From an uncultured Dehalococcoidia bacterium (GTDB lineage: Bacteria; Chloroflexota; Dehalococcoidia; UBA2247; RBG-13-53-26), in the NCBI GenBank assembly GCA_964492335.1, contig CAZBJX010000011.1:878-64877 (forward strand): DNA of 64,000 nucleotides, in the 5' to 3' direction. The notes beneath the pieces were generated by a model that was not told the DNA's origin, did not search any database, and saw only the letters and a list, made by a program, of their open reading frames with translations. Positions 18,241 to 49,963 of the stretch are shown here, piece after piece. The position numbers and the translations under genes are program-made. Each line of letters begins with the position of its first letter. Within the stretch, counting starts at the first letter, position 1.

Positions 18241-18360
18241 CTCCGCTCCTTCGCTTGATCGTCCCATCTTCAACTGAGGTCTCCGCGCACTTGAACGCAG
18301 ACGGTTGAGTCCTTTCCCCCTTCGACCACTCCCCCGAAGCCTGCCGGCGCTGTCCACCAC

Positions 18361-21416: not shown

Positions 21417-21437
21417 GCCCGCATCCAGGAAACCAGG

Positions 21438-22655: not shown

Positions 22656-22706
22656 AGGCGCCGCGGCACAGGATCAGGAAGGCCGTACAGGAGGGGCCCG
22701 ACAGCC

Positions 22707-22955
22707 ATGGTCACGCCGCTCAATGTCCCCAGGGAGATACGCGTTGCCGCCGCCGGCGACGGCTGCCCGGTCTCCGTCCGCATCGCCGGCCGGCAGCGGC
22801 GGGTGGCCCGCATCAGCAACCAGTGGCGCATAGACGACGAGTGGTGGCGCCAGGAGATATCCCGCCGTTACTTCGAGCTGGAGCTCGGGGACGGCTTGGT
22901 GATCACCGTATTTGAGGACCTGGTCTCGGGGCGCTGGTACCAGCAAAGGCTCTAG
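22707..22955 (+). CDS. small conserved protein (82 aa) between imuB and dnaE2, unknown function
   Basis: ATG at 22707 with CAGGAGGGG RBS. Stop TAG at 22953-22955 lies 2 nt before the dnaE2 ATG. Basic/aromatic-rich sequence (WRIDDEWWRQEISRRYFELELGDG). Confidence 0.5.
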   Translation: MVTPLNVPREIRVAAAGDGCPVSVRIAGRQRRVARISNQWRIDDEWWRQEISRRYFELELGDGLVITVFEDLVSGRWYQQRL

Positions 22956-22957
22956 CC

Positions 22958-27999: not shown

Positions 28000-28002
28000 C
28001 CG

Positions 28003-29484
<1,482 letters not shown>

Positions 29485-29498
29485 GGTCTCCTTGCCAG

Positions 29499-32058: not shown

Positions 32059-32134
32059 TGCCAGAAGTATCTCCTGGTTGCTTCTCAGCCAGTCTACGTC
32101 GCACCCCTACCGGGAAACAGGGCCGCAGCGCGCG

Positions 32135-33757: not shown

Positions 33758-33865
33758 GAGCTTGGCTCCCGGCCCGGGGCAGGGACCGGCGACAGACGGC
33801 GGACAGGCTCAGCCGGGAGGGACGGAACAGCCGATGGACACGGCTGAAGGGCCGGGCGACGCCGA

Positions 33866-34339
33866 TCAGGCGCCGCCCACCTTCTCCCGCGGCCCCACCA
33901 GGAGGACGGGCACGGTGCTGGCCCGGACCACCTTGTCGGCCACGCTGCCCAGCGCCCAGCGGCCGAGCCCGGAGCGCCCGTGGCTGGCCATGACGATGAT
34001 CTCACAGGGGCTGTGCTCTGCGTGGTAGAGAATGGCCTGGGCGGCATCTCCGATGACCAGCTTGGGGTACACGGCCAACCCCTGCCCGCTGAGCTTTTCA
34101 GCCACCCTGTTGATGTAGGCCCCGGCGTCGCGCTCCCTCCGGCTGACAGGCTCGGTGATCACCTTCTCTTCGGACTTCTGGCTCCGGTCCACCACCTTGC
34201 GGTAGCCCTCGGTGCGCTCCACCACCCTCAGCAACGTGATGTCCAGGGTGCCGCATCCCTTGGCCAGCGTCTCCGCATGCGATACGGCTGCCTCAGACAG
34301 CCTGGAGCCGTCCAGTGGGACCAGGATGTGCTTGTACAT
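33866..34339 (-). CDS. universal stress protein (UspA family)
   Basis: ATG at 34339 with AAGGAGGAG RBS. Motifs MYKHILVPLDGS and VMASHGRSGLGRWALGSVADKV (ATP-binding G-2x-G-9x-G(S/T)). Confidence 0.8.
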   Translation of the reverse strand: MYKHILVPLDGSRLSEAAVSHAETLAKGCGTLDITLLRVVERTEGYRKVVDRSQKSEEKVITEPVSRRERDAGAYINRVAEKLSGQGLAVYPKLVIGDAAQAILYHAEHSPCEIIVMASHGRSGLGRWALGSVADKVVRASTVPVLLVGPREKVGGA

Positions 34340-34500
34340 CGTCACTCTCCTCCTTCTCCGGGCCGGCCATTGCGCGCCCCGGGGCATTCGCTGGCTTCCT
34401 CCCGGCGCGGACCGCAGGTGTAGTGTAAGCTAGCACCCGCCTCCCGGCCAAGTCAAGGCCCCGGCCCTCACGCGGCGGGATGCCGGGAGGGGACGAGCCG

Positions 34501-35496
34501 TCAGAGGTCCCGGAAGCTCTTCAGCCGTTCGTACTCGATCACCAGGGAGATGGCGGCGTTCTCCGCCTGTATTCCGGCTTCCTCGGCGGCCGCCACCGGG
34601 TTCAGGCCGCCGAGCAGCAGCACCCCCACCCGGCCGGGTTCCACCGGCGCTTCACAGACCGGCTCGCCGGGCCGCCCCATCACCACCAGGCTGCCCAGGC
34701 CGGCCTCCTCGAGCCCGGCCATCACCTCGCCGGCCAGCGGCCGGCACTGCCCGGGCACCTCGGCGAAGTTGCCCAGCACCCGGCCGTCCCCCCTCCCGGC
34801 CGCCCCTGTCACGTCGGTCATCTTGCCCCGGATGAATACCTCCGAAGGATCCAGGGAGGTGCCGCCATAGTGGACCAGCTCCACGAAACGCAGCGGCCGC
34901 CCGGCCCTGATCTGGAGGATGCCCCCGAACCTGCAGTCCATGGGCACGCCGGCCTTCAGCAGCACGCCGGCCACCACGGCGCTGCAGACGGTGGCGAAGC
35001 CAACTTTGCCGGAGGGGATGGCCCTGTCCCCCAGGCTCTCCCCCTCCCGGGCCACGGCCACCATATGGCCTACGGACAGCCCCCTCTTGAAGGCCGCCGC
35101 CATCGCCTTCAGGGCCCCGGGGAACTCCTCCTTCTTGAACACCGACAGGTTGGCCGGCAGCAGCCCCCGGCGCGTCTCCACGTCGAATGTGGTCTGGAAG
35201 GAGACCAGCCCGATGCGGTTGCTGAAGAGGCCCACCTTGTCGCCCACCAACGCGTCGCGCAGCTCCGCAAGGCCGGCCTCGGTGATCCGCCTCCCGTCCC
35301 GGCCCACCAGCCGCGTCAGCCCCCGCTCGTCCATCAGCTTCAGGTGATAGCGCACCGCCCTCTCGCTGAGGTACACACCCTGCTCCTGCAGCTGCCGGCC
35401 GATCACCCTGGCCCCCACCGCCTCGGAGGAGCCCCTCAACACCCTCAGGATGGCGTTGACCTTCCTCTCCACGTCGACGTTGCTGGCGCCAATCAT
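34501..35496 (-). CDS. NrpR-like transcriptional regulator (N-terminal HTH plus DUF128/NrpR regulatory domain)
   Basis: HTH segment (VNAILRVLRGSSEAVGARVIGRQLQEQGVYLSERAVRYHLKLMDERGL), followed by a domain with the archaeal NrpR regulatory-domain pattern. ATG at 35496. Confidence 0.6.
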   Translation of the reverse strand: MIGASNVDVERKVNAILRVLRGSSEAVGARVIGRQLQEQGVYLSERAVRYHLKLMDERGLTRLVGRDGRRITEAGLAELRDALVGDKVGLFSNRIGLVSFQTTFDVETRRGLLPANLSVFKKEEFPGALKAMAAAFKRGLSVGHMVAVAREGESLGDRAIPSGKVGFATVCSAVVAGVLLKAGVPMDCRFGGILQIRAGRPLRFVELVHYGGTSLDPSEVFIRGKMTDVTGAAGRGDGRVLGNFAEVPGQCRPLAGEVMAGLEEAGLGSLVVMGRPGEPVCEAPVEPGRVGVLLLGGLNPVAAAEEAGIQAENAAISLVIEYERLKSFRDL

Positions 35497-35587
35497 CTGA
35501 CTCTGCACCCCGCCGCGCAGCACCATGGCTTCGACAACGCGCTCCGCTGCCGGGACATGCGCCGCCCCGCCCCCGGCGGCTCCGGCC

Positions 35588-36358
35588 TCACACCCTCACC
35601 GGTATGCCGCGGCCGGCCAGGTACCTCTTGGCCTGGGGAATGGTGATGTCCCCGAAGTGGAAGACCGAGGCGCAGAGCACGGCCGCCGCTTTGCCCCGGA
35701 CGACGGCGTCGTAGAGGTGCTCCAGCCTGCCGGCGCCCCCGGACGCAATCACCGGGATGCCGACCGCCCCGGCCACCGCACTGGTCATCTCCAGGTCATA
35801 CCCCTCCCTGGTGCCGTCCGCGTCCCGGCTGGTCAGCAGTATCTCGCCGGCCCCCAGGCCCTCCACCCTCCGGGCCCACTCCACCAGGTCCATCCCCGTC
35901 TCCTCCATGCCGCCACCCACCACCAGTTCCGTCCGCGGGCGCCCCCTCCCGGCCGGATTCTTCTTGCCGTCGAGGGCCACCACCAGGCTGCCGGCCCCGA
36001 AGCGGCCGGCGGCGTTGGCGATGAGGTCCGGGTTCCGGTAGGCCGCCGTGCCGATAACAACCTTGTTCACCCCAATGTGGAACAGCTGCTCCATATCAGC
36101 GACGTCGCGTATGCCGCCGCCCACAACAAAGGGCGCGGAGATGGCCTGGCGCACCTTCTTGACCCACTCCAGCATGATGCCCCGCTTCTGCACCGTGGCG
36201 GCGATGTCCAGGAAGGCGATCTCATCGGCGCCCTCCTTCTCGTAGGTGCCGGCTGCCTCCACCGGGTCCCCTGCGTCCTTCAAATTGACGAACCGGATGC
36301 CCTTGACCACCCTGCCGCCCTTGATGTCCAGGCAGGGTATAACCTTGACTGTCTTCAT
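35588..36358 (-). CDS. hisF: imidazole glycerol phosphate synthase cyclase subunit HisF
   Basis: [20 protein letters not shown]..., two phosphate-binding (beta/alpha)8 half-barrel motifs. Standalone; no other his genes in the window. Confidence 0.9.
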
Positions 36359-36596
36359 CTCTCCGCCGCTCCCTGGCCACGCATTCTCCCGGAACCATCA
36401 CCTGCGGGCCGCCCCGCCCGGCCGGCGGCCTCCTCCGGCGCCTTGCCTGACGGCCACCGGCCGTAGGTAACTGTTTGCCTAGTCTAAGACCGGCCCTCCC
36501 CAGGTGTCAAGGAGAGTCGGGCATGCCACAACGATGTAATGCCGGCCAGCCTCAAGAAATGCTGGTGGCTATTGCGCCTGCATGATATACTGTCTG

Positions 36597-36889
36597 ATGC
36601 AAGGCAGTATCAGCACGGGGCTCGATGAAGTTGGTATTCGCGACACCGACCCGAAGGCGGGTCGGGTCTTGATTTTCTGAGGCGCCACCAGCGACAGGCC
36701 CGGGTGAGGGATTGCCCGCCTGCGGAACGACTAACACAGCGGGCAAGGAAGGACTGAGGAGACCGACAATAGGCTGAAGAAAGAAGAATCCGTCCCGGGA
36801 AGCGTTGAACCGCCGTCTGTAATCTGGTCACTTGGGCGGCGGGGAGCCAGTAGTGAAACCGACCCATCTCAGGTCGGTTTTTCTTTTTT
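36597..36889 (+). promoter_or_regulatory. about 290-nt cis-regulatory leader RNA B (paralogue of leader A) upstream of the second DPM1-like GT2 gene
   Basis: Extended -10 promoter TGaTATACT at 36583-36591, no credible ORF, lower GC. Internal hairpin plus T-tract at 36637-36672. 3-prime region homologous to leader A and ends in the same terminator hairpin. Confidence 0.6.
36856..36889 (+). terminator. rho-independent terminator at the 3-prime end of leader RNA B
   Basis: AAACCGACC-CATCTC-AGGTCGGTTT followed by TTTCTTTTTTCC; about 105 nt upstream of the GT2 GTG start. Confidence 0.75.
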
Positions 36890-36996
36890 CCAGGCGGTCG
36901 GTCACCGGGAGGCCCGAATCACCAGGCCGAGGCAGCCGGAGCGAAGTGGCCGGAGATCGACCGAGCGGCCCGGCGGTCATCCAGCAGGAGGAAAGA

Positions 36997-37824
36997 GTGT
37001 TTCAGGGTAAGAAGATCGGCGTAGCGGTGCCGGCCTACAACGAAGAGAAGCTGGTGGCGGCCGTTGTGGAGAACATGCCGGCGATTGTGGACCGCATCTA
37101 CATCGTCGATGACGGCAGCACCGACGGCACCCGGGAAGTCGTGTCCGCGCTCTGCGCGAAGCACCCCAGGCTGCAGCTCATCGAGCACAAGAAGAACAGG
37201 GGCGTCGGGGCCGCCATCGTCACCGGTTACCAGAGGTGCCTCGACGACGGCATGGACATCGCCGTCGTCATGGCCGGGGATGACCAGATGGACCCCATGG
37301 AGCTGCCCAAGCTGCTGACGCCTGTGGCCAACGGGCAGGCAGGCTACTGCAAGGGCAACCGGATGGTCTCCTCCAGCACCATGAAGGGCATGCCGCGGCT
37401 GCGGCGGTTCGGGAACTGGCTGCTGAAGTGGCTCACCCGCGTCTCCTCCGGCAACTACCAGATAGACGATCCCCAGAACGGCTACGCCGCTGTCTCGTCG
37501 GATGCCCTTCAGAGGATCAAGCTGGATGACCTCTATCCCTACTACGGCTACTGCAACCACCTGCTGGCCAAGTTCACCGTGGCCGGGGTCAAAGCCGTAG
37601 AGGTGCCCATACCGGCGCGCTACCAGAAAGAGAAGTCCAAGATCCGGTACGGCAAGTACATCCGGAAGGTGAGCTGGCTCCTGCTCAACAACTTCGCCTG
37701 GAGGATGGAGGTCAAGTGGACCTCCATGACCCGCAGGCCGGCGTCCCGTCAACCCGCGGCCGAGATCCGCGAGATCAGCGAGGCCCCCGAGTTCCTGCCC
37801 GGGGTCTCGCGCCGCGCCAGGTAG
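36997..37824 (+). CDS. GT2 polyprenol-phosphate sugar synthase (DPM1-like), second copy
   Basis: GTG at 36997 with AGGAGG 5 nt upstream. Motifs IGVAVPAYNEE, IVDDGSTDGT, MAGDDQMDP. The ORF-track upstream 55 aa is out of gene. Confidence 0.8.
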   Translation: MFQGKKIGVAVPAYNEEKLVAAVVENMPAIVDRIYIVDDGSTDGTREVVSALCAKHPRLQLIEHKKNRGVGAAIVTGYQRCLDDGMDIAVVMAGDDQMDPMELPKLLTPVANGQAGYCKGNRMVSSSTMKGMPRLRRFGNWLLKWLTRVSSGNYQIDDPQNGYAAVSSDALQRIKLDDLYPYYGYCNHLLAKFTVAGVKAVEVPIPARYQKEKSKIRYGKYIRKVSWLLLNNFAWRMEVKWTSMTRRPASRQPAAEIREISEAPEFLPGVSRRAR

Positions 37825-38045
37825 CAGACGGCCGGCGCTCTGTGTTGCCTGCACTATCGCGCTTTGCCCTGGTCAGACAAAGCGCGATCTTCATGTTGAC
37901 GGCAGACGCCGCCGCCCGAAGGCCCCCGACCACCCATCCCCAGGCGGACACCCGGCGGCGCCACGCCCGGGCACAGCCATATTGCGCCCAGTGATAACAT
38001 ACCCTGGTAAGAGGCAGGCGCCGGAAAGGCAGGTCAGGCAGCACA

Positions 38046-38849
38046 ATGAGGCTGGACTTCACCATCGGGAGGTACCAGGAGCTGTGCGAGGCGATCGTGC
38101 AGTCGGGATACACGCCGATGACCGTGCGCGGCTACCTGGAGGCGGACAGGCTGCCGGCGCGGCTGGCCGTGATCAGACACGATGTTGATTCGACGCCGCG
38201 GCAGGAGCCCAAGATCGCCCGGATCGAGCAGGGTTGCGGCATCAGGGCCACCTACTACTTCAGGCACAGGCGCGGCATATTCCGCCCGGACATCATGCGG
38301 CTGATCGCCGGGATGGGCCATGAGGTAGGCTATCACTACGAGGCCATGGACAAGGGCAAGGGCGACTCGCGCAAGGCCATCGAGATCTTCGGCCGCGAGC
38401 TGGCCGACTTCAGGGAGGTGGTGGAGGTCAGGACCATCAGCATGCACGGCAACCCGCTGACGCGGTGGGACAACCGCGACCTGTGGCGCGATCACGATCC
38501 GGCCAGCTTCGGCCTCTCCGGTGAGGCCTACCTCTCGTTTGACCGGTCCAGGATCGGCTACCTGTCCGACACCGGCCGCACCTGGGGCCCGCGGTTCAAA
38601 GTGAAGGACTGGCTCCCTCCCCGTCCCGGCAGCACCGACCCGGCCTACCCCGTCCCCCCGGTGGACTCGACCGACGACCTGATAGCCCTGCTGCGCGGGC
38701 AGCAGGCGGACCATCTCTACCTGAACACCCACGCTGCCCGATGGGCGGACGGCCCGCCGGGCTGGGCCCGGCACTATGCGGAGGACCAGGCAGTGCGGAT
38801 GGTCAAGCGCCTGGTGGCCCTGGCGCGCCGCCCCGCTCCCCCCCCATGA
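38046..38849 (+). CDS. divergent polysaccharide deacetylase-like (CE4-like) protein
   Basis: Motif VIRHDVDS followed by H-rich segments (GHEVGYHYE, SMHGNP) resembling NodB-homology metal-binding motifs. Assignment is tentative. Confidence 0.4.
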   Translation: MRLDFTIGRYQELCEAIVQSGYTPMTVRGYLEADRLPARLAVIRHDVDSTPRQEPKIARIEQGCGIRATYYFRHRRGIFRPDIMRLIAGMGHEVGYHYEAMDKGKGDSRKAIEIFGRELADFREVVEVRTISMHGNPLTRWDNRDLWRDHDPASFGLSGEAYLSFDRSRIGYLSDTGRTWGPRFKVKDWLPPRPGSTDPAYPVPPVDSTDDLIALLRGQQADHLYLNTHAARWADGPPGWARHYAEDQAVRMVKRLVALARRPAPPP

Positions 38850-38899
38850 TGAGAGGCGCCGGCCCGTGTATAATGAGTCCGGCACGGAGGTAACGCTAC

Positions 38900-39934
38900 A
38901 TGACCACAGTGGAAGTCAATGCCCCTGTCACCGTTGAGGAGTGGCGGGCCTTTGTGGACAGCCGGCCTGAGGCCACCTACGCCCACCTCCCCGGGTGGCA
39001 GGCGGTCCTGCGGGACAGCCTGGGGCACAGGCCTTACTACGTTTTCGCCCGCAATGAAGCCGGCCGGCTCTGCGGGGTGCTGCCGCTGTTCCAGGTCCGC
39101 AGCATCCTCTCCGGGAGCCACCTGGTGTCCACCCCATTTGTCAGCGAGTGCGGCCCCGTGGCCGAATCGGACGAGGCGCTCAGGGCCCTGGTGGACCGGG
39201 CCCGGGGCCTCTGCGACGAGCTCGGGTGCCGGTACATGGAGATCCGGGCATCGCGCCAGCTGCCCCTGGACCTGCCGGTGAGCGAGTACTTCTACACCTA
39301 CTTCGTCCCGCTGTCCGAGCCGCAGAAGGCATGGAAGGCCCTCGACCACCGGACGCGGAACGCGGTCAACAGGTCCCGCAAGAGGGGCGTGGCGGTCAGC
39401 ACGGACGACTCGCCGGGCGCCATGAAGGCCTTCTACGAGGTGAACCTGCGGACCAAGACCCGGCTGGGATCACCGGCCCACCCCCTGGAGTTCTTCCAGG
39501 CGATGCAGCGGGAGCTGGGCGACTGCTTCCGGCTCTACACCGCCGACTACCAGGGCCGCGCGATCTCGGCCGGCGTGGCCATACGCTACAACGGGGTGGT
39601 CAACGCCACCCACCAGGCCTCGGATCGCAGCTACCTGGAGCACCACCCCAACGAAGCCGTGTCCTGGCAGCAGATGGAGGACGGAGGCCGGGACGGCTTC
39701 CACTACCTCGATTTCGGCAAGACGCCGGCGGACAACCCGGGGCTGGCACAGTACAAGAAGAAGTGGAAGGCCGAGGAGAAGCAGCTCTATTACTACTACT
39801 ACCCGAGCGTACCGAAGCTGATGGGGTCGGACCGGCAGGGGACCAGGTTCAAGTTGGTCACCGGGGTGTGGAAGAGGCTGCCTCTCTCCATCGTCCGGCG
39901 GCTGGGCCCCTTCGCCTTCAGGCAGCTCGACTAG
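38900..39934 (+). CDS. FemAB-like / BioF2-like GNAT-fold acyltransferase (second copy)
   Basis: Same family pattern as 6564..7646 (two GNAT-like halves, HYLDFGKTPADNPGLAQYKKKW). ATG at 38900 preceded by GGAGG. Confidence 0.6.
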   Translation: MTTVEVNAPVTVEEWRAFVDSRPEATYAHLPGWQAVLRDSLGHRPYYVFARNEAGRLCGVLPLFQVRSILSGSHLVSTPFVSECGPVAESDEALRALVDRARGLCDELGCRYMEIRASRQLPLDLPVSEYFYTYFVPLSEPQKAWKALDHRTRNAVNRSRKRGVAVSTDDSPGAMKAFYEVNLRTKTRLGSPAHPLEFFQAMQRELGDCFRLYTADYQGRAISAGVAIRYNGVVNATHQASDRSYLEHHPNEAVSWQQMEDGGRDGFHYLDFGKTPADNPGLAQYKKKWKAEEKQLYYYYYPSVPKLMGSDRQGTRFKLVTGVWKRLPLSIVRRLGPFAFRQLD

Positions 39935-39967
39935 CGGGCGGGCCGCGGGGAAGCTGGAAGGACAACG

Positions 39968-41047
39968 ATGAAGATACTGGTAGACCTCAATCACCCGGTG
40001 GACATCAATTTCTTCAAGAACGCCATCAGACTGTGGACGGCGGAGCACGGCTGCCAGGTGGACATCTGCCTCCAGCCCCGGGGCAAGATGGTGGCCATCC
40101 TCCAGAGCGAGCTCCCGGAGTATGCCTTCACCACCATGGGCACCTTTCAGAAGACGATGGCCCGCAAGATCCTGATGCACGCCTGGCGGTTCCCCCAGTT
40201 CGCCAATCACGTGCGCCGGGGCCGGTACGACGTGGTGGCCTCCTTCGGCGGGATCGTGGTCTCCCACGCCACCTGGCTGCTGGGCAAGCCCTCCGTCATC
40301 TTCGATGACGACATCGAGTACGGCATCGGCTACTGGCCCTACAAGCCCTTCGCCACCCGGCTGCTGCTCCCGGCCCAGGTCCCGGCCACCGGCAGGAACA
40401 TCATGCGCTACAAGGGGTTCAAGGAACTGGCTTACCTGCACCCCAACTACTTCCGGCCCGACGAGGGGGCCCTTGCCGAGTACGGCCTGGAGCCATCCTC
40501 ATACGTCTTCGTCCGGGAGGTCAGCAAGGTCAGCGGGAACTACGCCCACCTGGAGACCGGCGGGCTGGCCGGGGTCTGCGCGCGGGTGAAGGAACAGGGG
40601 CTCATGGTGGTCCTCTCCCTGGAGGACAAGTCCCTGAAGGACCAGTTTGCCCCCCACTGCATCATCCTCCAGGAGCCGGTAAGGGACATCCACTCGCTGA
40701 TGCACTTCGCCCGGCTGACCATCTCCTCCGGGGACACCATGGCCCGGGAGTCATGCCTGGCAGGCACCCCGGTCATCTACACCGGGGGCCGGACCATGTC
40801 GGTCAACTCCGAGCTGGTCCGGAAGGGCATCTTCTTCCAGCCCGGCGCCGGTCAGCCCACCATGGGCCTGGTCAACATGATCGTGGAGCAGGGCCTCAAG
40901 GAGAAGACCGGCCGGATACTGCGGGAGGCCCTGTCGGGCGAGTGGGAGGACACCACCAGGGTGATCGTATCCAACGTGCTCGAGGCCGGGGCTGCCAGCG
41001 CCCGCGCAGGCCGGCCGGCAAGGGAGCGCAATGGCAAGACAGGATAG
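39968..41047 (+). CDS. DUF354 family protein (GT-B-like, glycosyltransferase/epimerase-related)
   Basis: N-terminus MKILVDLNHPVDINFFKNAI matches the DUF354/COG1817 consensus start (MKIWIDI.NP..V.FF). Confidence 0.65.
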   Translation: MKILVDLNHPVDINFFKNAIRLWTAEHGCQVDICLQPRGKMVAILQSELPEYAFTTMGTFQKTMARKILMHAWRFPQFANHVRRGRYDVVASFGGIVVSHATWLLGKPSVIFDDDIEYGIGYWPYKPFATRLLLPAQVPATGRNIMRYKGFKELAYLHPNYFRPDEGALAEYGLEPSSYVFVREVSKVSGNYAHLETGGLAGVCARVKEQGLMVVLSLEDKSLKDQFAPHCIILQEPVRDIHSLMHFARLTISSGDTMARESCLAGTPVIYTGGRTMSVNSELVRKGIFFQPGAGQPTMGLVNMIVEQGLKEKTGRILREALSGEWEDTTRVIVSNVLEAGAASARAGRPARERNGKTG

Positions 41048-41807
41048 GGCCACCCCGCCAGCCCCGGGAGAGCAGGGCCCGGCGATGGAGCCCATGCCGC
41101 AGGCCATCAGGCAGGAGGACCGGGAGTACTTCGACAGCCGGCAGGAGAAGGCCGACGCCATACTGGCGGACATCCAGTCCCTGGGGCATCCCGACATCGG
41201 TGGCCGTCGCATACCGGTCCTCGAGGTGGGCGCCAACAGCTGCTTCATCGCCCAGCGCCTGGCCAGCGTCACCCGGTGGGACATCCATTGCCTGGAGATC
41301 GAGGCGGAGCGGCTGTTCAAGTACCCCGAGATCTGCCGCTCGTTCAAGTCCGTCCTGGCCGACGCCACCGCCATCCCCTTCAAGGACGCGTCCTTCGATC
41401 TGGTGTTCTGCAATCACACGCTGGAGCACATCGTGCCCTACCGGGCCTGCATCAGCGAGATGCTGCGGGTCACCAGGGCCGGCGGACTCCTCTACCTGGC
41501 CTTCCCCAACCGCGACCGCCTGGTGGACGAGATCGGACTGGGCTGGTCCAAGACGAAGTCGAACCTGGCCTGGTACTTCGACCGGGCCTTCCGGGCCTTC
41601 ACCATCGAGAGCCGGGTGGACCACCACATCGGCCTGGGATGCGGGGAGACCAGGGTGGCCTGCCGGGGGCACAGGGTGACCTGCCTGAGCAAGGGCCACG
41701 CCACCCGCTCCCTGGGGAAGACCGCCCGGCGCATCGCCGGGCGGGTCCCGGCCGGCATCTTCGACCGGTTCTCCCCGGTGGGCGTGTACCTGGTGGAGAA
41801 ACGGTAG
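41031..41807 (+). CDS. class I SAM-dependent methyltransferase
   Basis: Motif I-like VLEVGANSCFIAQRL, acidic loop DIHCLE, motif FDLVFCNHTLEH. Start overlaps the DUF354 tail; an alternative ATG at 41082. Confidence 0.7.
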   Translation: MARQDRATPPAPGEQGPAMEPMPQAIRQEDREYFDSRQEKADAILADIQSLGHPDIGGRRIPVLEVGANSCFIAQRLASVTRWDIHCLEIEAERLFKYPEICRSFKSVLADATAIPFKDASFDLVFCNHTLEHIVPYRACISEMLRVTRAGGLLYLAFPNRDRLVDEIGLGWSKTKSNLAWYFDRAFRAFTIESRVDHHIGLGCGETRVACRGHRVTCLSKGHATRSLGKTARRIAGRVPAGIFDRFSPVGVYLVEKR

Positions 41808-41809
41808 CC

Positions 41810-42967
41810 GTGGTCATCGCCATCGTCGAGGCCATGGACCCCGATTCCCCGGCCATCGGGGGCGGAGAGACCTACTCGCGAAACCTGCTGCAGTACCTCC
41901 TGAAGACCGGGGTGCCCACGTTCTTCATCGGCGTGTCTGCCGCCAGGGGCCGGACCACCGAGGGCCATTTCACCTTCCTGCCGGTCTCCAGCAGGACAAC
42001 CCTGGGCAACCAGGGGTTCGTGCTGCGGCTGGCCCTGCGCCGGGCCTGCGCTTCGCTGCCCCGCGGCGCCATCGTCCACGTCCAGCGCCCGGAATACGCG
42101 CTGCCCTTCGTCCTGTTCTGCCATGGGCGCCCCAGAGTGGTTACACTTCATGGGATGATATTGCACGGGGTGAGGCTCAAACAGTCCCCCATGGTGGCCC
42201 GGGCTTACAGGATGGTGGAGTCGATATGCCTGCGGCGCAGCGCTGCTGTAATCGCCGTGGATGAAGGCACCAGGGAGTTCTACGAGAAGGAGTACCCCTG
42301 GCTGCGAGGAAGGCTCCGCGTGGTGCCCATCGGGATAGACCTGGGCCGGTTCCGTATCATGGACCGCGCCGCCATGAGGGCGGCGCACGGTTTCGGTGCC
42401 GCGGACAAGGTGGTCATGTTTGTCGGCCGCCTGGAGATCGAGAAGGACTTGGGCTTTCTGATCGAGAGCTTCCGCCTGGTCCTCCCCCGCGTGCCGGAGG
42501 CGCGCCTGGCGCTGGTGGGCGACGGGCGCCACCGCGCGGCGCTGGAGGAGATGGCCCGGGACCTGGTGCCCGACAGGGTCCTCTTCACGGGGTCCAGGCC
42601 GCCGGATTCCATCCCGGAGTTGCTTAACTGCGCCGATGTGCTAACATTGTGCTCGATGTACGAAGGCAGCCCGACCACGGTCAAGGAGGCCCTGGCCTGC
42701 GGTGTCCCGGTGGTGACCGCACCCGTGGGAGACGTGGCCCGGGTCATCAAGGAGAGCGCCACCGGCCGGATCGTCCCCAAGGATCCGGCCCGGTATGCCG
42801 CGGCCATCATCGAGGTGCTGACTGCCCCTGATCCGGAGGGCGCGCGGAGGGCCTGCGTCCGGGCCGCCGCGGAGTTCGGGTTCGACCGGGTCGGCGAGCG
42901 CACCGCAGAGGTCTACGAGGAAGTGGCCGCCCATGGGCAGATGAAGCGCGCGCGTGCGCAGAGGTAA
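41810..42967 (+). CDS. glycosyltransferase family 4
   Basis: GTG at 41810 after GGAGAAA, 2 nt past the methyltransferase stop. GT4 C-terminal motif (CSMYEGSPTTVKEALACGVPVVTAPVGD). Confidence 0.8.
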   Translation: MVIAIVEAMDPDSPAIGGGETYSRNLLQYLLKTGVPTFFIGVSAARGRTTEGHFTFLPVSSRTTLGNQGFVLRLALRRACASLPRGAIVHVQRPEYALPFVLFCHGRPRVVTLHGMILHGVRLKQSPMVARAYRMVESICLRRSAAVIAVDEGTREFYEKEYPWLRGRLRVVPIGIDLGRFRIMDRAAMRAAHGFGAADKVVMFVGRLEIEKDLGFLIESFRLVLPRVPEARLALVGDGRHRAALEEMARDLVPDRVLFTGSRPPDSIPELLNCADVLTLCSMYEGSPTTVKEALACGVPVVTAPVGDVARVIKESATGRIVPKDPARYAAAIIEVLTAPDPEGARRACVRAAAEFGFDRVGERTAEVYEEVAAHGQMKRARAQR

Positions 42968-42971
42968 CAGC

Positions 42972-44933
42972 GAGATGAGAAGCCCCTGGGAGGACCACCG
43001 GAAGCTGCCGGGAACCAGCCAGTCCGATATCTGGCTCAAGCTGGGGGCCCTGCTCTGCGTCGCCTTCGTGATAATCGCCCTCCTCCAGATGCACCGGGCC
43101 CCGGCCATCGGCTACGAGCTTTCCATCTACACCGCCACTCCCACCAGCGTCTGGTTCCTGCTGCTGCTGGCCCTGCTGGGCGGGCTGGGCATCGTCATCC
43201 ACGAGCTGGCCACCGGAAGGCACCAGGAGACGCGGACCTGCCTGGTGGGCTTCGCGGTGGTCCTGCTGGCCGTCACGGCCTTCCTCTGCCTGCCGGTCAT
43301 CCGGGACTACTTCAGCTGGAGAGGCGACCAGCTGGCCCACATCGGCTTCGTCAAGGACATTGCCTCGGAGAACAGGCTGCCCGGCTACAACCCCTACCCG
43401 GTGACCCACACCCTCCTCTACGAGCTCTCCGCCATTTTCAACTGCTCGATAGACAAGGCCGTCAACCTCAACACGCCCCTGATCTTCGTCGTGTTCGTGC
43501 TGGGGACCTACCTGCTGACCACCGTGGTGCTGCCCGGCAGAGGGCACCAGATCACCGCCACCCTCTTCGCCGCCGCGACCGTAGCCGCGCTCAGCCGCTA
43601 CAACCTGGTGCCGAACACCTGGTCCATACTCCTGCTGCCGGTCTTCTTCTACTGCTACTTCAGGCGCGATGAGCCGCCTTTCAAGATCCTGCTGGTGGTG
43701 CTGATCCTCATCTACCCCTTCCTCCACCCCCTGTCGGCGCTGATGATCATCGCCTCCATGGCCGCCATCGAGTTTCTGAAGCCGGCCTATTCCCGGCTGC
43801 TGCGGCGCATCGGAATGGAGCCGCCCCACTGGGTCTCTGTCGGGCCGGTCGTCTGGCCGCTGGCCATGCAGCTGCTGGTGTTCCTGCCGTGGGTTTTCAC
43901 CCGCAGCGCCTTCCGCAGCAACGTGGACGCCCTGTGGTGGCAGCTCATCAACTTCAGCGGGTCGAGCCAGGGGTCGCACGCCATGGCCAGCCTGTCCAAG
44001 GTGGACCTGGACGCCCTGGGGGTCTTCTTGATTATCGTGAAGCTCTACGGCCAGATCTTCCTGGCGGGCGTCTTCGCCTGCATCGGGATCATCCTGCTCT
44101 GGCGGCACCTGCGCAGAGGCGGCCGTGGCGACAGCGCCGGCGGGAGCGTCTGGGACCTGGAGCCCGCCGGCGACCTGGAGACCGGCGAGCCGGCCGGCGG
44201 CGACGACAACCGCATCCGCCTGGGCTACGTGGCCTTGCTGTTCCTGCTGTCCACCCTGGCCTACTTCGCGTTCTACGCCGGGGCCCCGGGGGCGGAGTCG
44301 CTCTCCGCCACCAGGATCGTGGTCTATGTGGAGGTGGCCGCCATCCCGCTGGTGGGCTTCGCCCTGTGGGAGATCGCCAGCCGGGCCAGCGCCCGCTGGC
44401 TCGCCTGGGGCTTCGTTTCGGCCGTCATCATCGCGGCCGCCATCCTTAACGTGCTGGGGCACTACACTGCTCCATACCAGTTGCGCCCCAATGACCAGGT
44501 GACCCACTCGGACATCGACTGCATGGAGTGGCTCCTGCACGAGAAGGACCCGGCCACCTTCACCTTCTTCATCATGTCGTCTCCGGACCGCTTCTCACAG
44601 GCCATACTGGGAGCCACAGTGACCTCCACCAGGACGGACGTCAAGGATGTTCAGTGGCTCCAGTTTGCCGACCACTTCGGCTACGTGCCGTCCAAGACAC
44701 CCGGCAGCACGGAGAGCTACAACACCGTGGGAGAGCAGTTCCGGATGGACATATACGGCAACATCCACATGTACGATAAGGCGGCCTACCAGACAGTCTG
44801 GAAGAGCCTGGACCGGGTCAACGACGCCGACTTCCAGAGGCTCGAGCAGGACCCGACGGTCAACCGCATATACTCGGACGGGGCCTCCGACGCCTACCAC
44901 ATAACCGGCCACAGACAGGACACGGGCGCCTAG
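42972..44933 (+). CDS. large polytopic membrane protein (second copy) with C-terminal soluble domain; candidate GT-C-type glycosyltransferase or polymerase
   Basis: At least 12 TM helices over 450 aa, then a soluble C-terminal about 190 aa. ATG at 42972 with AGAGG RBS; an alternative GTG at 42954. Same architecture and operon position as 12798..14513. Confidence 0.55.
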   Translation, partial: EMRSPWEDHRKLPGTSQSDIWLKLGALLCVAFVIIALLQMHRAPAIGYELSIYTATPTSVWFLLLLALLGGLGIVIHELATGRHQETRTCLVGFAVVLLAVTAFLCLPVIRDYFSWRGDQLAHIGFVKDIASENRLPGYNPYPVTHTLLYELSAIFNCSIDKAVNLNTPLIFVVFVLGTYLLTTVVLPGRGHQITATLFAAATVAALSRYNLVPNTWSILLLPVFFYCYFRRDEPPFKILLVVLILIYPFLHPLSALMIIASMAAIEFLKPAYSRLLRRIGMEPPHWVSVGPVVWPLAMQLLVFLPWVFTRSAFRSNVDALWWQLINFSGSSQGSHAMASLSKVDLDALGVFLIIVKLYGQIFLAGVFACIGIILLWRHLRRGGRGDSAGGSVWDLEPAGDLETGEPAGGDDNRIRLGYVALLFLLSTLAYFAFYAGAPGAESLSATRIVVYVEVAAIPLVGFALWEIASRASARWLAWGFVSAVIIAAAILNVLGHYTAPYQLRPNDQVTHSDIDCMEWLLHEKDPATFTFFIMSSPDRFSQAILGATVTSTRTDVKDVQWLQFADHFGYVPSKTPGSTESYNTVGEQFRMDIYGNIHMYDKAAYQTVWKSLDRVNDADFQRLEQDPTVNRIYSDGASDAYHITGHRQDTGA

Positions 44934-45002
44934 GCATCTCCTGGCCCACGCGCGCGGCCTGGCCCGCGCGCGGGCCAGGCCGACAGTGGAGCAGCATATA
45001 GA

Positions 45003-46097
45003 ATGACCACCGGGCAGTCCGCGAAGCCAGACCGGCCGGGACAGCCCCACGTCCCCCTGGGGGCCGGGCAGCGCTGGGGGCTGCGCCTGGCCGGAGCGGC
45101 CGGCGCCCTGGGGGCCATCGACGCGTACGGGGCGCTCAGAAGGCGCCTGGTCCGGTGGTCCGCCTGCATCCTGTCGTATCACCGGGTGGGCCCCGGGACC
45201 GAGCTGCCCACCGACATTCCGCTGACAACGCCCGCGGACTTCGAGCAGCAGGTGCTCTACCTGCGCCGGCGCTACCAGGTGATGCCCCTGGCCCGGCTGG
45301 GCCGCGCCATCAGCGAGGGCCGGCCGCTGCCCCGCAACACGGCGGTCATCACCTTCGACGACGGCTACCGCGACAACTACCTGCACGCCTACCCCATCCT
45401 GCGAAAGCACGGCGTTCCGGCCACCATCTTCCTGGCCACCGCGCACATCGACCAGGGGCACCCCTTCTGGTGGGACCGGGTGAGCTGCGCCGTTCTCCTG
45501 ACAACCGAGCAGAGGCTCGAGAGCGACCGCCTGGGGTCCTACGACCTCAGCTCCACGGAGCGCAGATGGGAAGCCGTCAGCGCCATGGACGTGCGCCTGA
45601 AGCAGATGCCCGACCACGAGAAGAACCAGGCCATCGAGGAGATGGTGCGCAGGCTGGCAGCGGACGTGCCGGCCGCCATGGCCCGGGACATGATACTCAC
45701 CTGGGACGACGTCGCCGAGATGGCGGGCAACGGCATCACCTTCGGCTCTCACACCGTCCACCATCCCACGCTGATAGGGCTGCCCCTGGACCAGGCCCGG
45801 AGTGAGATCGCTGACTCCCGGAAACGGATTGAGGAGAAGACGGGCCAGCCCTGCGACACCTTCGCCTACCCCGACGGGCGCGAAGGCAACATCAGCCCGG
45901 GCATCAGGGCCATCCTGGCCGAGAACGGCTACGTGTGCGCCGTGTACGCCCTGCCTAACCGGCTGGTGGCGCCCGGGGCGGACCCCTACGGCCTGCCCAG
46001 GGTGTCCCCCAAGTGGGACTACACCACCTTCCGGCTGAGCGTCTCGGGGCTCTACCCGGACCTGTCCCGGGTGATGGACCGGGGGAGGAAGGCATGA
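45003..46097 (+). CDS. polysaccharide deacetylase (CE4, NodB homology domain)
   Basis: Motif 1 ITFDDGYRDNY, His motifs (FGSHTVHHP). ATG at 45003 directly after a TATAGAAT -10-like element, which suggests a leaderless mRNA. Confidence 0.8.
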   Translation: MTTGQSAKPDRPGQPHVPLGAGQRWGLRLAGAAGALGAIDAYGALRRRLVRWSACILSYHRVGPGTELPTDIPLTTPADFEQQVLYLRRRYQVMPLARLGRAISEGRPLPRNTAVITFDDGYRDNYLHAYPILRKHGVPATIFLATAHIDQGHPFWWDRVSCAVLLTTEQRLESDRLGSYDLSSTERRWEAVSAMDVRLKQMPDHEKNQAIEEMVRRLAADVPAAMARDMILTWDDVAEMAGNGITFGSHTVHHPTLIGLPLDQARSEIADSRKRIEEKTGQPCDTFAYPDGREGNISPGIRAILAENGYVCAVYALPNRLVAPGADPYGLPRVSPKWDYTTFRLSVSGLYPDLSRVMDRGRKA

Positions 46098-47185
46098 GCG
46101 CCGCCGGGCCCCGCTGGACCGCCAGGCCCTACCGCGAAGGGGACGAGGAGAGGATTCTCGATCTCTGGAAGGCGGTCTACCCGGACCGCGGGTACGTCCG
46201 CGAAGAGTGGCTGGCCTGGTGGCGGTGGCTCTACCGGGACAACCCCGCCGGCGCGGGGGTCATCGCCCTGGCTGAAGACGAGGGCAAGATCATCGCCCAC
46301 ACCGCCGAGATACCGATGCTGATGAAGATCGGCGACGCCGAGGTCCTGGCCGCCATCGGCCTGGACGCCATGACCCACCCGGACTACCGCCGGCAGGGGA
46401 CCTACGCGGCCACGGTGGACCTGCGGCGCCTGGAGAGCCAGAGACGCGGCATCCAGGCGGAGTACGCCTTCCGCAGCAAGTACTCCTACGCCTACCCGGG
46501 GCTCTCTGACAAGGTGGGCATGTTCGACGCCGTCACCCTGCCGAAGGTATTCCGGCCGCTGGACTGGCGGGCCACGCTCGGGACCCAGACCGGCAGCAGG
46601 CTGGTCCTGGCCCTCGGTCCGGCCGCGGGCAGACTGCTCACCGCGGCCGCCCTGCGCCCGGCGAAGGCCCCCCTGCCGGAGAAGACGCGCCTGGCCCTGA
46701 CGGACCGCTTTGACGAGCGCTTCGACCAGCTGTGGGCCAGGGTATCCGGACGGTACCGGACCACCGTGTCACGCAAGAAGGAGTACCTCAACTGGCGGTA
46801 CGTCGCCGTGCCCGACCGGCGCTACACCATACTGACGGTCGGGAATGCGGATGCCATCTGCGGCTACGCCGTCTTCAGCTGCGCCGACACCGAGGGGACC
46901 ATGACCGGGCTCATCGCCGAGGTGGTCGCCGAGTCCCGGCCGGTGGAGGAGTGCCTGATCAAGGCGGCGGTGCAGCGCTGCCGCACGGGGAAGGCGGCCC
47001 TGGTGTGGGGCGCCAGGCTGGCGGGCACATCGCTGGCGGCGGCCTACAGGCGGCAGGGCTTCATCGCCGCGCCCCGGTCCAAGACCAAGCTGGTCACCGC
47101 CTGCGCCTTCTCGCCCGATCTGGTAGCGCAGTTGCGGCGGCCGGATGCCTGGTTCCTGCAAATGGGCGACTCCGACGAGGCGTGA
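46094..47185 (+). CDS. two-domain GNAT-family acyltransferase
   Basis: ATG at 46094 overlaps the upstream TGA (ATGA). Two GNAT-like halves (motif RRQGTYAAT). Confidence 0.6.
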   Translation: MSAAGPRWTARPYREGDEERILDLWKAVYPDRGYVREEWLAWWRWLYRDNPAGAGVIALAEDEGKIIAHTAEIPMLMKIGDAEVLAAIGLDAMTHPDYRRQGTYAATVDLRRLESQRRGIQAEYAFRSKYSYAYPGLSDKVGMFDAVTLPKVFRPLDWRATLGTQTGSRLVLALGPAAGRLLTAAALRPAKAPLPEKTRLALTDRFDERFDQLWARVSGRYRTTVSRKKEYLNWRYVAVPDRRYTILTVGNADAICGYAVFSCADTEGTMTGLIAEVVAESRPVEECLIKAAVQRCRTGKAALVWGARLAGTSLAAAYRRQGFIAAPRSKTKLVTACAFSPDLVAQLRRPDAWFLQMGDSDEA

Positions 47186-47242: not shown

Positions 47243-49563
47243 TCACCGGAGGCCGGGCGGGCGCTTCCTCCGCAGCAGCTTCCCCGCCAGCCCGGGGAGG
47301 GCGCCCATCACACCCCTGACCAGCCCTATTTCGTCCGGCCGGAAGAACCTGACTATGTAAAGGAGCAGAGGGAAGGTGAGAATGAGCAGCACCTTCAGGA
47401 AGCCGGCCATCAGCACCTGGGACTGCTTGTCGGCCGCCCCGGACTCCACCGGTGCCATGCCGGACACATCAGCCAGCGCATCGGACAGGGTAACCCCGGT
47501 CAGGTCCCTGTCGCCGGTATTGGTCACCACCACCTGGAAGGTGATGGGGTCGCCGGCGGCGTCCACCACGCCGCCCGGGCCGTCGCCGCCGACATCGGTG
47601 ACCGCCAGCACGATCCTCCAGGCCGCCCAGCCTTCCTTGTAAACGGGCACCTCCTGGCTGTCGCTGCGGCTGGCCAGCCCGGAGCAGCTGACGGTAGCGG
47701 TGTTCCCGATGACGCCGCCATCTTCGTAGCCCTCCAAGTCAGCCTCGGTGGTGTCATACCAGTACATCCAGGTCCACGTCTCCCCGGCGTCGAGAACCTC
47801 ATCGTCGTTGGCGGACTTCCTCAGAGTGAAGTTCTCGGAGAGATCAACCAGCGAGTCGGTCAGCCCCACCCCGGAGAGCGACACCACCCCGGTGTTGGTT
47901 ACCTTCGCCTCGTAGCGGATGCGGTCGTTGGGGGCGTCCACCACCCCGCCGGGGCCCTGGCCGCCGACATCGGTGACCGTCAGGCGAATGGTGCAGCTGG
48001 CGTCCCGGGCCACCGGCACCAGCTCACCATCACTGCGGCCGCCCAGCTGGTCAGAGCTGGCGGTGGCCATCGCCAGGATGTACCCGTCGGCGTCGCCGGC
48101 ATCCAGGTCGGCTTCGGTAACAACGTGGGAGTAGGTCCAGGCCCAGCTCTCCCCGGCCTGAAGGATGCCATCGTGATTGGTGGACCGCTCCAGGTAGCTG
48201 CGCACCCCTGCGGCCGCCGCCAGGCAGGCGGCGAAGACCACCGCCGCCACCAGAACCAGCTTGACCACCCGGCCCCACTCGTACTTGATGGGGTAGTAGC
48301 GCTGCGAGATGAAATAGGCGCCCACCGGCAGGACGGCATAGCCGATCAGCGTGGCCACCCCCGCCCCCATGATGCCCAGGGGCGGTATCAGGACATAGGA
48401 CAGGGCCACTTTCACCACCGCCCCCGATATGGTCAGCAGGGCCGTGTTCACGGTCTTGCCCTCGATGTAGATGCCCGCCGCCATCTGGAAGTAGCAGCCA
48501 TACAGCACGTAGGACAGCGCCACCAGCGGGATTACGTTGCGGGCGCTGTGGAAGGGCGACGTTGCCATGACCAGCACCAGCTCCTCCCCCAGGGCCGAGA
48601 GAGCCACGGCCGCGAACAGGGCCACCGCCAGGAAGTAGGTGAAGACCCGGGTGTAGGTCTCCCCCGCCCGGGGCTTGAGCGCGGTGGAGAACAGGAAGGG
48701 CAGCCACGCCAGCTGCATGGGGCCCACCAGGATCCCCTGTATCACCATGCCGAACTTGAACCCCAGGGAGTATACTCCGGCCGGGCCGATGCCCATCAGC
48801 CCGGTCAGTATCCACCGGTCGGCCATGACCAGCATCCAGCCAGCCAGCCCGGACGGTATCAACGGCACCCCGTAGGCAAGCATGGCCCGGAGCTTCTGGC
48901 GGGAGATCCGGACGCCCACCCGCCGCAGCAGGCTCCCCATCAGCAGCGTGTAGAGGATGCCGCAGGTGATCAGCTCCGAGTAGAGCACGCCCAGGACCCC
49001 CTTGTGCAGCACGAGCACGAAGACGATGTTCAGGGAGACCGCCATGACGAACTGGGCGATGGAGGCCGCCGCATACCTCACCGGCGTGCCCCTGGCCCGG
49101 TAGACCGTGAGGACTGTGTTGATGCCCTGGTTGAAGAAGAGGGACACGAACAGTATGCGGAAGAAGTAGGGGTCCTGGGAGCGGTCGCGCCCCGGGTCCC
49201 TGAGGACCAGGGAGGATATGGGGCCCGCAAAGATCTCCAGAAGAATCAGGGCCGCCAGCGACGTGGCCATCAGGAAGAGCACCGCCGTGCTGGCCACCCT
49301 GCGCTTCCCTTCCTCGTCCTCCCGCCCGGCATAGAAACGCAGCATGGCGGTGGCCACGCCCATCCCCAGGGTGATCCCCAGCACCGCTGACGTGGTGTTG
49401 AGGAGCTCGATGACGCCGTACCCTTCGGTACCCAGCCTGCGCGTGTACACCGGCACAAGCAGGAAGCCAATGAACTGGCTCAGGACAGTGCTGAGGCCGT
49501 AGATGATGGAGTCCCGCGACAGCGAGAAGACCTGCTTGAAGACGGACTGCTGGCTCTCAGACA
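47243..49563 (-). CDS. Wzx-like flippase fused to two DUF11-type repeat domains and a C-terminal TM anchor
   Basis: Residues about 76-565 form a 12-14 TM MOP flippase. Then two tandem about 115-aa repeats (TEADLD...ATV...VTDVGGxGPGGVVDA...V.NTG...L.GV.L.D.L.D.S). Then a TM helix (VLMAGFLKVLLILTFPLLLYIV) and a basic tail. GTG start near 49563; the ORF-track N-terminal 75 aa is probably extension. Confidence 0.65.
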
Positions 49564-49963
49564 CAGCCCCGTATTCTAGCACATCCGCCTGTGCGCAGCC
49601 CAAGGCATGCCGGCACGGCTCCACACCTGGCCCCTGCGAGCATGCCCGCCCGCTGCCCCGGGGCGGGCCCGTCCCTGCCGGCCGTGCCCTGCAAGACCAC
49701 GGGCCCGGAATGAGAGGTTTCCGTGACAGGGCCTGCCGCCGCCGCGGCCAACCGCAGAAGACGCCCACAAGCGCATGCTGTGTTAACATCCTGTGACCCC
49801 CGGATTACCCCTTGAGAGTCCGGGGAGAGCCTCCAGTGATACACTGTCCCCCACAGCAGAGAATACAGCAGGCCGAGCAGCGGGGGCAGCGCCCTGCCCA
49901 TTCCCGGACCACCTGATAGTTACTATCCGAGGTCCCTTTGACTCAGCCTGCAAGGGGTGGTTA

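Follow-up and report, generated by a model that had tools for sequence, protein, structure and literature searches.

Why would one stretch of bacterial DNA carry two glycan-assembly clusters that seem to be built from the same parts? We addressed this question in 64,000 nt of contig CAZBJX010000011.1 from an uncultured bacterium (positions 878 to 64,877; hereafter the window), concentrating on module B, which comprises nine genes (B1 to B9) on the plus strand at 36997–47185; the second cluster, module A, lies on the minus strand. Module B is a real, conserved nine-gene glycan operon and no duplicate of module A. We favour, with slightly better than even confidence, the view that it builds a tailored surface glycan on polyprenyl monophosphate and is switched on by cyclic di-GMP (c-di-GMP), the main bacterial signal for the switch to an attached lifestyle.

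Because the window is about 68% GC, genes were called by third-position GC, with starts picked from context. Nine plus-strand genes of high third-position GC were found in 36997–47185, and searches of Pfam, NCBIfam and the PDB agreed that the gene list given for this interval by an earlier, sequence-only reading was essentially right. Junctions within module B range from −17 to +69 nt, the sole exception being a 221-nt gap between B1 and B2, and from these junctions co-transcription of 38046–47185 is plausible. Related loci, retrieved with a 13-sequence alignment, are closest in uncultured Chloroflexota/Dehalococcoidia metagenome-assembled genomes, and the host probably belongs to the Dehalococcoidia within the Chloroflexota. 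The order B1-B2-B3-B4-(B5)-B6-B7-B8-B9 was kept in the fetched loci L001–L007, at 47–88% protein identity (tblastn), and again in L009 and L010. A convergent wzx gene sits beside the cassette wherever the contig reaches far enough. Since gene order is conserved across loci, we conclude that the cassette is a selected unit. Its composition varies in places: L007 has an extra NTP_transf_5/kinase-like gene and a GT4 gene between B6 and B7, where a similarly sized gap occurs in L003 and L005. The two glycan clusters are separated by genes for LexA, an ImuB-like protein and DnaE2, which identify the host as a bacterium; its carrier is therefore polyprenyl phosphate and not dolichol, the carrier implied by the 'Dol-P-sugar' synthases of the sequence-only reading.

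Both clusters are preceded by a riboswitch. The module B leader (leader B) contains a c-di-GMP-II aptamer at 36789–36873 on the plus strand (RF01786, 64.6 bits, E 3.8e-12), and the module A leader contains another at 18372–18455 on the minus strand (63.8 bits); both matches span the full model (1–84) and exceed its gathering score of 53.5 bits. As in other members of RF01786, the expression platform is an intrinsic terminator; it overlaps the aptamer in both leaders and is located at 36855–36890 in module B (plus strand; a 10-bp stem followed by TTTTTCTTTTTT) and at about 18350–18385 in module A (minus strand). In module B the overlap involves the 5′ arm of the terminator, AAACCGACC, and the conserved aptamer 3′ strand (model positions ~66–84). 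As the terminator 5′ arm is the conserved aptamer 3′ strand, ligand should prevent termination, and both riboswitches are predicted to be ON switches. Orthologous aptamers precede module B in L001 and L002, with scores of 60.1 and 61.9 bits. The described examples of this class are mainly from Clostridia and a few other lineages, whereas the host here is a member of the Chloroflexota and the downstream genes are polyprenyl-phosphate/GT-C glycan operons; a literature search on the c-di-GMP-II riboswitch together with Chloroflexi found nothing.

Across aptamer and terminator the two leaders are identical at 82 of 110 positions (75%), compared with about 50% in their flanks. With c-di-GMP-II aptamers and near-identical terminators in both leaders, both operons should answer the same signal, which contradicts the earlier suggestion that they are separately regulated: the same ligand should switch both. 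The orthologue of module A in L008 has a recognisable aptamer (6150–6250) with core and terminator kept. In the 5′ strand of its P-stem, CTGCCACCC stands in place of CTGTTGCCC, a change that disrupts pairing and brings the score under the Rfam threshold; the switch may be decaying, or the assembly may be wrong here. On the same contig the carbamoyltransferase gene and several module A genes look fragmented.

The similarity of the leaders bears on whether modules A and B are paralogous duplicates of one cassette, with diversified tailoring enzymes and separate regulation suited to different conditions or acceptors. Each cluster does have, as the sequence-only reading proposed, a structured leader, a DPM1-like GT2, a FemAB-like enzyme, a GT4 and a large membrane protein; the same families thus head and populate both, and both end at a convergent gene for a Wzx-type flippase. 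That reading's first operon is real, although it was mis-summarised: module A consists of 12 genes on the minus strand, from 18240 to 5180, in the order GT2, GT2, GFO/IDH/MocA, a 304-aa protein without assignment, a 571-aa membrane protein, DUF362, GFO/IDH/MocA, ATP-grasp, a 221-aa protein without assignment, a DegT aminotransferase, Acetyltransf_6 and GT4. The shared families are not collinear with those of module B. Another candidate for the first operon, the minus-strand block at 27199–36397, was rejected, as its Pfam matches are HisF-like, NrpR, Usp, Na/H exchanger, MscS/DUF5752, TreT, OtsA and OtsB.

We tested paralogy by all-against-all blastp, the pairwise check that had been named beforehand. 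The GT2 pair A1–B1 gave 23% identity (48.5 bits), the FemAB-like pair A10–B3 21% identity (E 2e-4) and the GT4 pair A11–B6 25% identity over 72 aa (E 0.03); the membrane proteins A4 and B7 gave no match. Each of the aligned pairs is no closer than unrelated family members. A1 and B1 score higher against the Dol-P-Man (dolichyl-phosphate-mannose) synthase of P. furiosus (PDB 5mlz; 88.2 and 58.8 bits) than against each other. The model for the proteobacterial XrtA-associated FemAB protein, TIGR03019, gives B3 201.6 bits (under its cut-off of 260) and A10 39.8 bits, and the unrelated TreT protein matches B6 better (2e-7) than A11 does. Specific paralogy thus failed for three of the four pairs, 'repeats the architecture' was an overstatement, and duplication of one cassette, largely refuted by these scores and at odds with the shared signal that a shared riboswitch class implies, is highly improbable.

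The membrane-protein pair differs in being specifically, if only remotely, related. Alignment of the A4 and B7 family profiles with hhalign gave a probability of 97.2% (E 3e-11) over 479 columns, nearly full length, at 14% identity, and the two proteins share a 'GD' aspartate (A4 D113, B7 D118) and a C-terminal domain. Database relatives number 43 for B7, mostly from Chloroflexota, and 19 for A4. By these profiles A4 and B7 are ancient relatives within a rare family. The modules themselves appear to be co-induced clusters, independently assembled on the same pathway logic, and not recent duplicates.

What, then, does the operon make? B1 (36997–37824, plus strand), directly behind the riboswitch, is a soluble DPM1/AglJ-like GT2 (PF00535, 91.8 bits) with the Shine–Dalgarno sequence AGGAGGAAAGA ahead of its GTG start. 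The Dol-P-Man synthase is its best PDB match (4e-15, residues 2–216), and ArnC is also among its PDB sequence matches. Its scores missed the equivalog cut-offs of AglJ (70.5 against 325 bits), PpgS (49.4 against 370 bits) and ArnC (28.3 against 529 bits). A hydropathy scan found no transmembrane segment in B1, so it is without the C-terminal anchor helices of the GtrB, ArnC and PfDPMS types; soluble DPM1-type enzymes exist, and a missing anchor does not exclude function. We predict that B1 is a polyprenyl-phosphate glycosyltransferase, either the initiating enzyme or a donor synthase.

B7 (42975–44933, plus strand; alternative GTG start at 42954) is a polytopic membrane protein of 652 aa with about 12 transmembrane helices. 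Pfam gives it no match, not even at E ≤ 1; across all members of its family, a permissive scan returned only marginal matches to DUF6541, DUF6044 and PTPS_related, and its profile found nothing useful in the PDB by sequence. The AlphaFold2 (AF2) model, built on a 25-sequence alignment, has a predicted local distance difference test score (pLDDT) of 82.7 and a predicted TM-score (pTM) of 0.84. All of its top 10 Foldseek matches in the PDB are GT-C enzymes (STT3A/B, PglB, DPY19, ArnT and Pmt4), with probability 1.0, E-values of 1.6e-5 to 1e-2 and TM-scores of 0.30–0.46, and the best of them are oligosaccharyltransferases rather than ArnT. E48, R110, D118 and H122 are invariant across the 25 B7-family sequences and, by the positive-inside rule (positive N-terminus and 81–87 loop), are predicted to lie in outward-facing loops. 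No WWD[YFW]G motif occurs in these sequences or in 15 from the A4 family. Without a WWDYG motif or a Pfam match, B7 is not a member of the STT3 family for all its GT-C appearance, and it models confidently as a member of an uncharacterised GT-C family. GT-C enzymes use polyprenyl-P(P)-linked donors, and we predict that B7 transfers a polyprenyl-P-linked sugar or glycan, the adjacent DPM1-like GT2 being the one pointer to this type of donor.

A distant relative of B7 occurs in Haloferax sp. DFSO60 (E 1e-14). Its neighbours are DUF1616, FemAB-like, sulfatase, Wzx, GFO/IDH/MocA and beta-helix genes, the same families as are found around both modules in the window. Relatives of this Haloferax protein are widespread in Halobacteria, a few of them labelled RgtA/B/C/D-like, GT39 or DUF6541.

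B2 (38046–38849, plus strand), which the sequence-only reading called CE4-like, is 267 aa long and belongs to a large family without a name, with 1939 representatives at E ≤ 1e-3. In favour of that description, the highest Foldseek probabilities of its AF2 model (pLDDT 94.8) belong to CE4 structures (0.91–1.0, with TMt up to 0.60, all at E > 1e-3), and the family conserves the motifs RHDVD and HExGYH and a C-terminal H229. Against it, B2 has no Pfam or NCBIfam match, a sequence search of the PDB gave nothing useful and Foldseek returned no match at E ≤ 1e-3. Comparisons of B2 with the CE4 family of B8 by hhalign, using shallow and deep profiles, were not significant (probability <1%). Members of the B2 family occur fused to DUF354 (three cases), to GT4, to a true CE4 and, in one member, to a formyltransferase domain; these fusions link the function of B2 to that of B4 and to N-acyl chemistry on sugars. 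B2 could plausibly be a (beta/alpha)-barrel metal hydrolase with a distant likeness to CE4 enzymes.

The remaining genes, all on the plus strand, encode transferases and tailoring enzymes. B3 (38900–39934) is a FemX/FemAB-like acyltransferase matching PF13480 Acetyltransf_6 (56.1 bits) and PF02388 FemAB (26.8 bits), both above cut-off, and FemX in the PDB (2.5e-7); it is predicted from these families to catalyse aminoacyl-tRNA-dependent N-acylation. B4 (39968–41047) is a DUF354 protein (PF04007, 50.7 bits over the whole model length) without a PDB relative by sequence search; a literature search on DUF354 yielded nothing relevant, and we predict a GT-B type sugar transferase. B5 (41031–41807) is a class I S-adenosylmethionine (SAM) methyltransferase (PF08241 Methyltransf_11, 57 bits). 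It is present only in the window, L002, L006, L009 and L010, which form a high-GC clade, and missing from L001, L003, L005 and L007, so the methylation chemistry ascribed to module B exists and is accessory. B6 (41810–42967) is a GT4 glycosyltransferase (PF00534, 107.6 bits; PF13439, 59.9 bits) that scores 103 bits, under the cut-off, against the glycosyltransferase model TIGR03088. B8 (45003–46097) is a CE4 polysaccharide deacetylase (PF01522 Polysacc_deac_1, 87 bits against a cut-off of 23.1) with the invariant motifs TFDD (T117-F-D-D120) and HTVHH (H250...H254) and partial matches to the PgaB and IcaB models. B9 (46094–47185), whose ATG overlaps the B8 stop codon, is a GNAT acyltransferase (PF13527 Acetyltransf_9, 41 bits) for which a sequence search of the PDB gave nothing useful.

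From these parts we propose the following pathway, in which the enzymatic steps are assigned by family membership; aptamer, terminator, synteny, folds and pairwise relationships were established directly. Bound c-di-GMP would keep the aptamer's own 3′ strand (ACCGACC) engaged in the aptamer fold, block the terminator and let transcription proceed into B1. B1 would place the first sugar, probably an N-acetylhexosamine (HexNAc), on polyprenyl phosphate. The B2 hydrolase, the B8 CE4 enzyme or both would strip N-acetyl groups, and the freed amines would be re-acylated by the FemX-like B3, with an amino acid from aminoacyl-tRNA, and by the GNAT protein B9. B4 and B6 would add further sugars and, in the high-GC clade, B5 would methylate. 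The convergent Wzx-type protein would flip the lipid-linked product, and the GT-C protein B7 may then hand the lipid-linked sugar or oligosaccharide to an extracytoplasmic acceptor, either a surface protein or a polymer.

A neighbouring Wzx-type gene would also be expected if module B were a conventional Wzx/Wzy exopolysaccharide locus in which B7 is a divergent polymerase or ligase, B1 is a GT2 for an internal sugar and the phosphoglycosyltransferase is encoded elsewhere. Partial matches of B3 and B6 to models from XrtA/PEP-CTERM exopolysaccharide systems, the PgaB-like CE4 enzyme and the common induction of matrix polysaccharides by c-di-GMP are consistent with such a locus. However, Pfam scans of the scanned window genes, and the precomputed annotations of orthologous loci as far as these loci extend, revealed no phosphoglycosyltransferase, Wzy, Wzz/polysaccharide co-polymerase (PCP) or bacterial tyrosine kinase (BY-kinase), nor any export component; the only Wzx/Wzy-type genes are of the Wzx type, and Bac_transf, Glycos_transf_4, Wzy_C and Wzz had no match in the scanned genes or in the neighbours of the orthologous loci. 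The folds matched by B7 are those of oligosaccharyltransferases, ArnT, PMT and DPY19, not of the WaaL/Wzy type, and for both B1 and A1 the nearest relatives are polyprenyl-P sugar synthases. A Wzx/Wzy locus is in our judgement distinctly unlikely. The missing phosphoglycosyltransferase, Wzy and chain-length regulator favour a monophosphate route like that of archaeal Agl systems, which is also the most parsimonious account of the locus.

The Agl pathway of Haloferax volcanii is a close parallel to this route. There AglJ, AglG, AglI and AglE build a glycan on dolichol monophosphate, AglP methylates it, and flipping and GT-C transfer follow (PMC3871713); module B would likewise start with a DPM1-like GT2 acting on a monophosphate, and it has further glycosyltransferases, a SAM methyltransferase, a flippase and a GT-C protein. 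The flippase-associated AglR and the oligosaccharyltransferase AglB complete the H. volcanii set. Within the window, A1 and A2 match the AglJ and AglG models and B1 matches AglJ, all below cut-offs, and the haloarchaeal relatives of B7 adjoin DUF1616, FemAB-like, Wzx, GFO and beta-helix families. Module B differs from the archaeal pathway in its bacterial host, in the absence of an STT3/AglB homologue and of a WWDYG motif in B7, and in its added CE4, FemX-like and GNAT chemistry and riboswitch control.

A GT2, a deacetylase and a GT-C enzyme together are also the signature of the Arn, Nax and Lgm pathways, and the chief competitor to the assembly of a glycan on polyprenyl monophosphate is decoration of the Gtr/Arn/Lgm type, in which B7 attaches just one amino sugar to a glycan made elsewhere. 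B1 would then make polyprenyl-P-HexNAc, B2 or B8 would de-N-acetylate it on the lipid before flipping, and the GT4 and DUF354 enzymes would act on some other carrier. ArnC-ArnD-ArnT, FlmF2-NaxD-FlmK and LgmABC each combine a GT2 polyprenyl-P-(N-acyl)aminosugar synthase with a CE4-type de-N-acylase and a GT-C transferase, and in module B a GT2 gene is directly followed by a deacetylase-like gene and accompanied by a GT-C gene. B1 matches the ArnC and PpgS models, ArnT is among the fold matches of B7, and the B2-family fusion to a formyltransferase domain recalls ArnA. Those systems decorate Gram-negative lipid A with one sugar, whereas there is no lipid A context here and B2 is not a recognisable CE4 enzyme by sequence. 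Two GT-B enzymes, a FemX-like enzyme, a GNAT protein and a dedicated Wzx exceed the needs of one sugar, the scanned genes include no phosphoglycosyltransferase for a separate carrier-linked glycan, and the best folds for B7 are oligosaccharyltransferases, not ArnT. We regard single-sugar decoration as unlikely. The third comparison, with XrtA/PEP-CTERM loci, rests on a deacetylase-like gene beside a FemAB-family gene and a GT4 gene; it is weakened by the sub-threshold scores of B3 and B6, and the window has no exosortase, PEP-CTERM protein, tyrosine kinase or phosphoglycosyltransferase.

The gap between B1 and B2 bears on how far the riboswitch reaches. Just past the B1 stop lies a perfect 11-bp inverted repeat (37856–37888, plus strand), a possible terminator or processing site, which folds at −16.2 kcal/mol (z −2.3), is unique within the window and is invariant among the window, L001 and L002. 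About 50 nt upstream of B2 (at about 37985–38005) a conserved sequence, GTGATAA(C/G)ATACCCTG, resembles an extended −10 element, also written TGATAACAT / GTGATAACATACCCTG. A terminator and an internal promoter that split B1 from B2–B9 are possible from these features. In the distant loci the gap is longer still and has its own conserved sequence (L003 1440–1530, L005 2620–2700, L007 2600–2690), GGAACCCCTGGAA.CC..GTGGA.CT.ACGGAGGAAAC...TGGAAGTAGGAGT, which has no Rfam match and could be an RNA element or a small open reading frame.

Several observations weigh against a c-di-GMP-induced glycan assembled on polyprenyl monophosphate. Given the hairpin and the −10-like element in the gap, the riboswitch may directly gate only B1, though gating of B1 alone would still gate the pathway because B1 does the committing step. 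A permissive Rfam scan found no riboswitch in the distant, lower-GC clusters L003, L005 and L007. The TM-scores of the B7 fold matches are modest (0.30–0.46), the hydrolase assignment of B2 is weak, with all fold E-values above 1e-3 and no significant hhalign result, and other parts of the genome could hold a gene for an initiating phosphoglycosyltransferase or a polymerase.

If a c-di-GMP-switched polyprenyl-monophosphate pathway is nevertheless correct, two riboswitch-gated operons tie c-di-GMP directly to surface glycan synthesis in a Dehalococcoidia-like lineage without genetics. The main interest lies in the pairing of c-di-GMP-II riboswitches with archaeal-style polyprenyl-P/GT-C operons and in an unannotated GT-C family that haloarchaea share. 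This family, for which there is no Pfam model, is present in both operons, and its haloarchaeal relatives share the gene neighbourhood; if its members transfer glycans from monophosphate-linked donors, they add to the oligosaccharyl and glycosyl transferases already known. The AglB-independent oligosaccharyltransferase of the Haloferax 'low-salt' pathway is still unidentified (PMC3871713), and in that case the family might bear on it. A more ambitious proposal, that B7 and A4 are a new GT-C family that moves polyprenyl-monophosphate-linked oligosaccharides to surface proteins independently of AglB/PglB and under c-di-GMP gating at the committing GT2 step, an archaeal-style route in Chloroflexota that would make the haloarchaeal relatives of B7 candidates for the missing Haloferax enzyme, is a long shot. 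Should none of this hold, module B would be an ordinary, though well-conserved, surface polysaccharide cluster.

Two further elements precede the aptamer of module B. A putative extended −10 element, TGATATACT, was read from the sequence at 36584–36592 (plus strand); TGnTATACT is also present in L001, and a consensus promoter scan did not call the element. Between this putative promoter and the aptamer, a scan matched a terminator-like hairpin with a T-run at 36646–36675 (plus strand; CCGACCCGAAGGCGGGTCGG, then GTCTTGATTTT; −20.5 kcal/mol, z −3.75), which is kept in L001 and L002. Its arms resemble those of the riboswitch terminator; it may act as a tandem attenuator or belong to a small RNA.

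The module A genes compared above, all on the minus strand, are as follows. A1 (17422–18240) is an AglJ/DPM1-like GT2 (PF00535, 105.7 bits; AglJ model, 115 bits) with the Dol-P-Man synthase as its best structural relative. A2 (16391–17449) is an AglG-like GT2 that matches the full length of NF041394, the model for glucosyl-dolichyl phosphate glucuronosyltransferase, at 207.3 bits (cut-off 440). Its start is uncertain, with candidates at 17449, which overlaps A1, and 17329. A4, the 571-aa membrane protein and remote B7 homologue, occupies 12798–14513, and A10, the FemAB-like Acetyltransf_6 protein, 6564–7646 (PF13480, 43.8 bits). For the GT4 protein A11 (5180–6496; PF00534, 31 bits) the start is also uncertain: high third-position GC begins at 6589 (5180–6589), and the first ATG/GTG/TTG is at 6496.

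Downstream of B9, the convergent flippase gene (47243–49789, minus strand) encodes a Wzx-type domain (PF01943, 55.2 bits) fused to DUF7507/CLIPPER_2 (PF24346, 79.1 bits) and DUF11 (PF01345, 29.1 bits) repeats. Two Ig-like repeat regions are followed by a further C-terminal transmembrane helix, and this unusual fusion is kept in L002, L006, L009 and L010. Beside it, in the window, L009 and L010, lies a gene (49793–51667, plus strand) whose product combines He_PIG/Big_9 Ig domains with a dockerin at the C-terminus and is a candidate acceptor or partner at the surface. The clusters are also accompanied by genes for DUF1616 membrane proteins and for NosD/beta-helix proteins (window 55–927 and 1984–3810, both plus strand; L007 15552–16901; L011 2396–3403). 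DUF1616 is a mostly archaeal family, and the two families keep company not just in the window but also in one distant locus from Chloroflexota and in Haloferax.

Between the glycan clusters, the lexA, imuB-like and dnaE2 genes form an SOS mutagenesis cassette (20751–26161, plus strand), with the same neighbourhood in L008. The three trehalose genes, for OtsB, OtsA and a TreT-type synthase, lie beside those for an MscS-like channel with a DUF5752 fusion, a CBS-domain Na+/H+ exchanger and a Usp protein (27199–32058, minus strand), in what looks like an osmotic-stress island. At 34501–35526 (minus strand) this bacterium also encodes an NrpR-type regulator (HTH_12 + NRD1_2, 239 bits), of a kind known mainly from methanogens; in L009 its gene is beside one for glutamate dehydrogenase.

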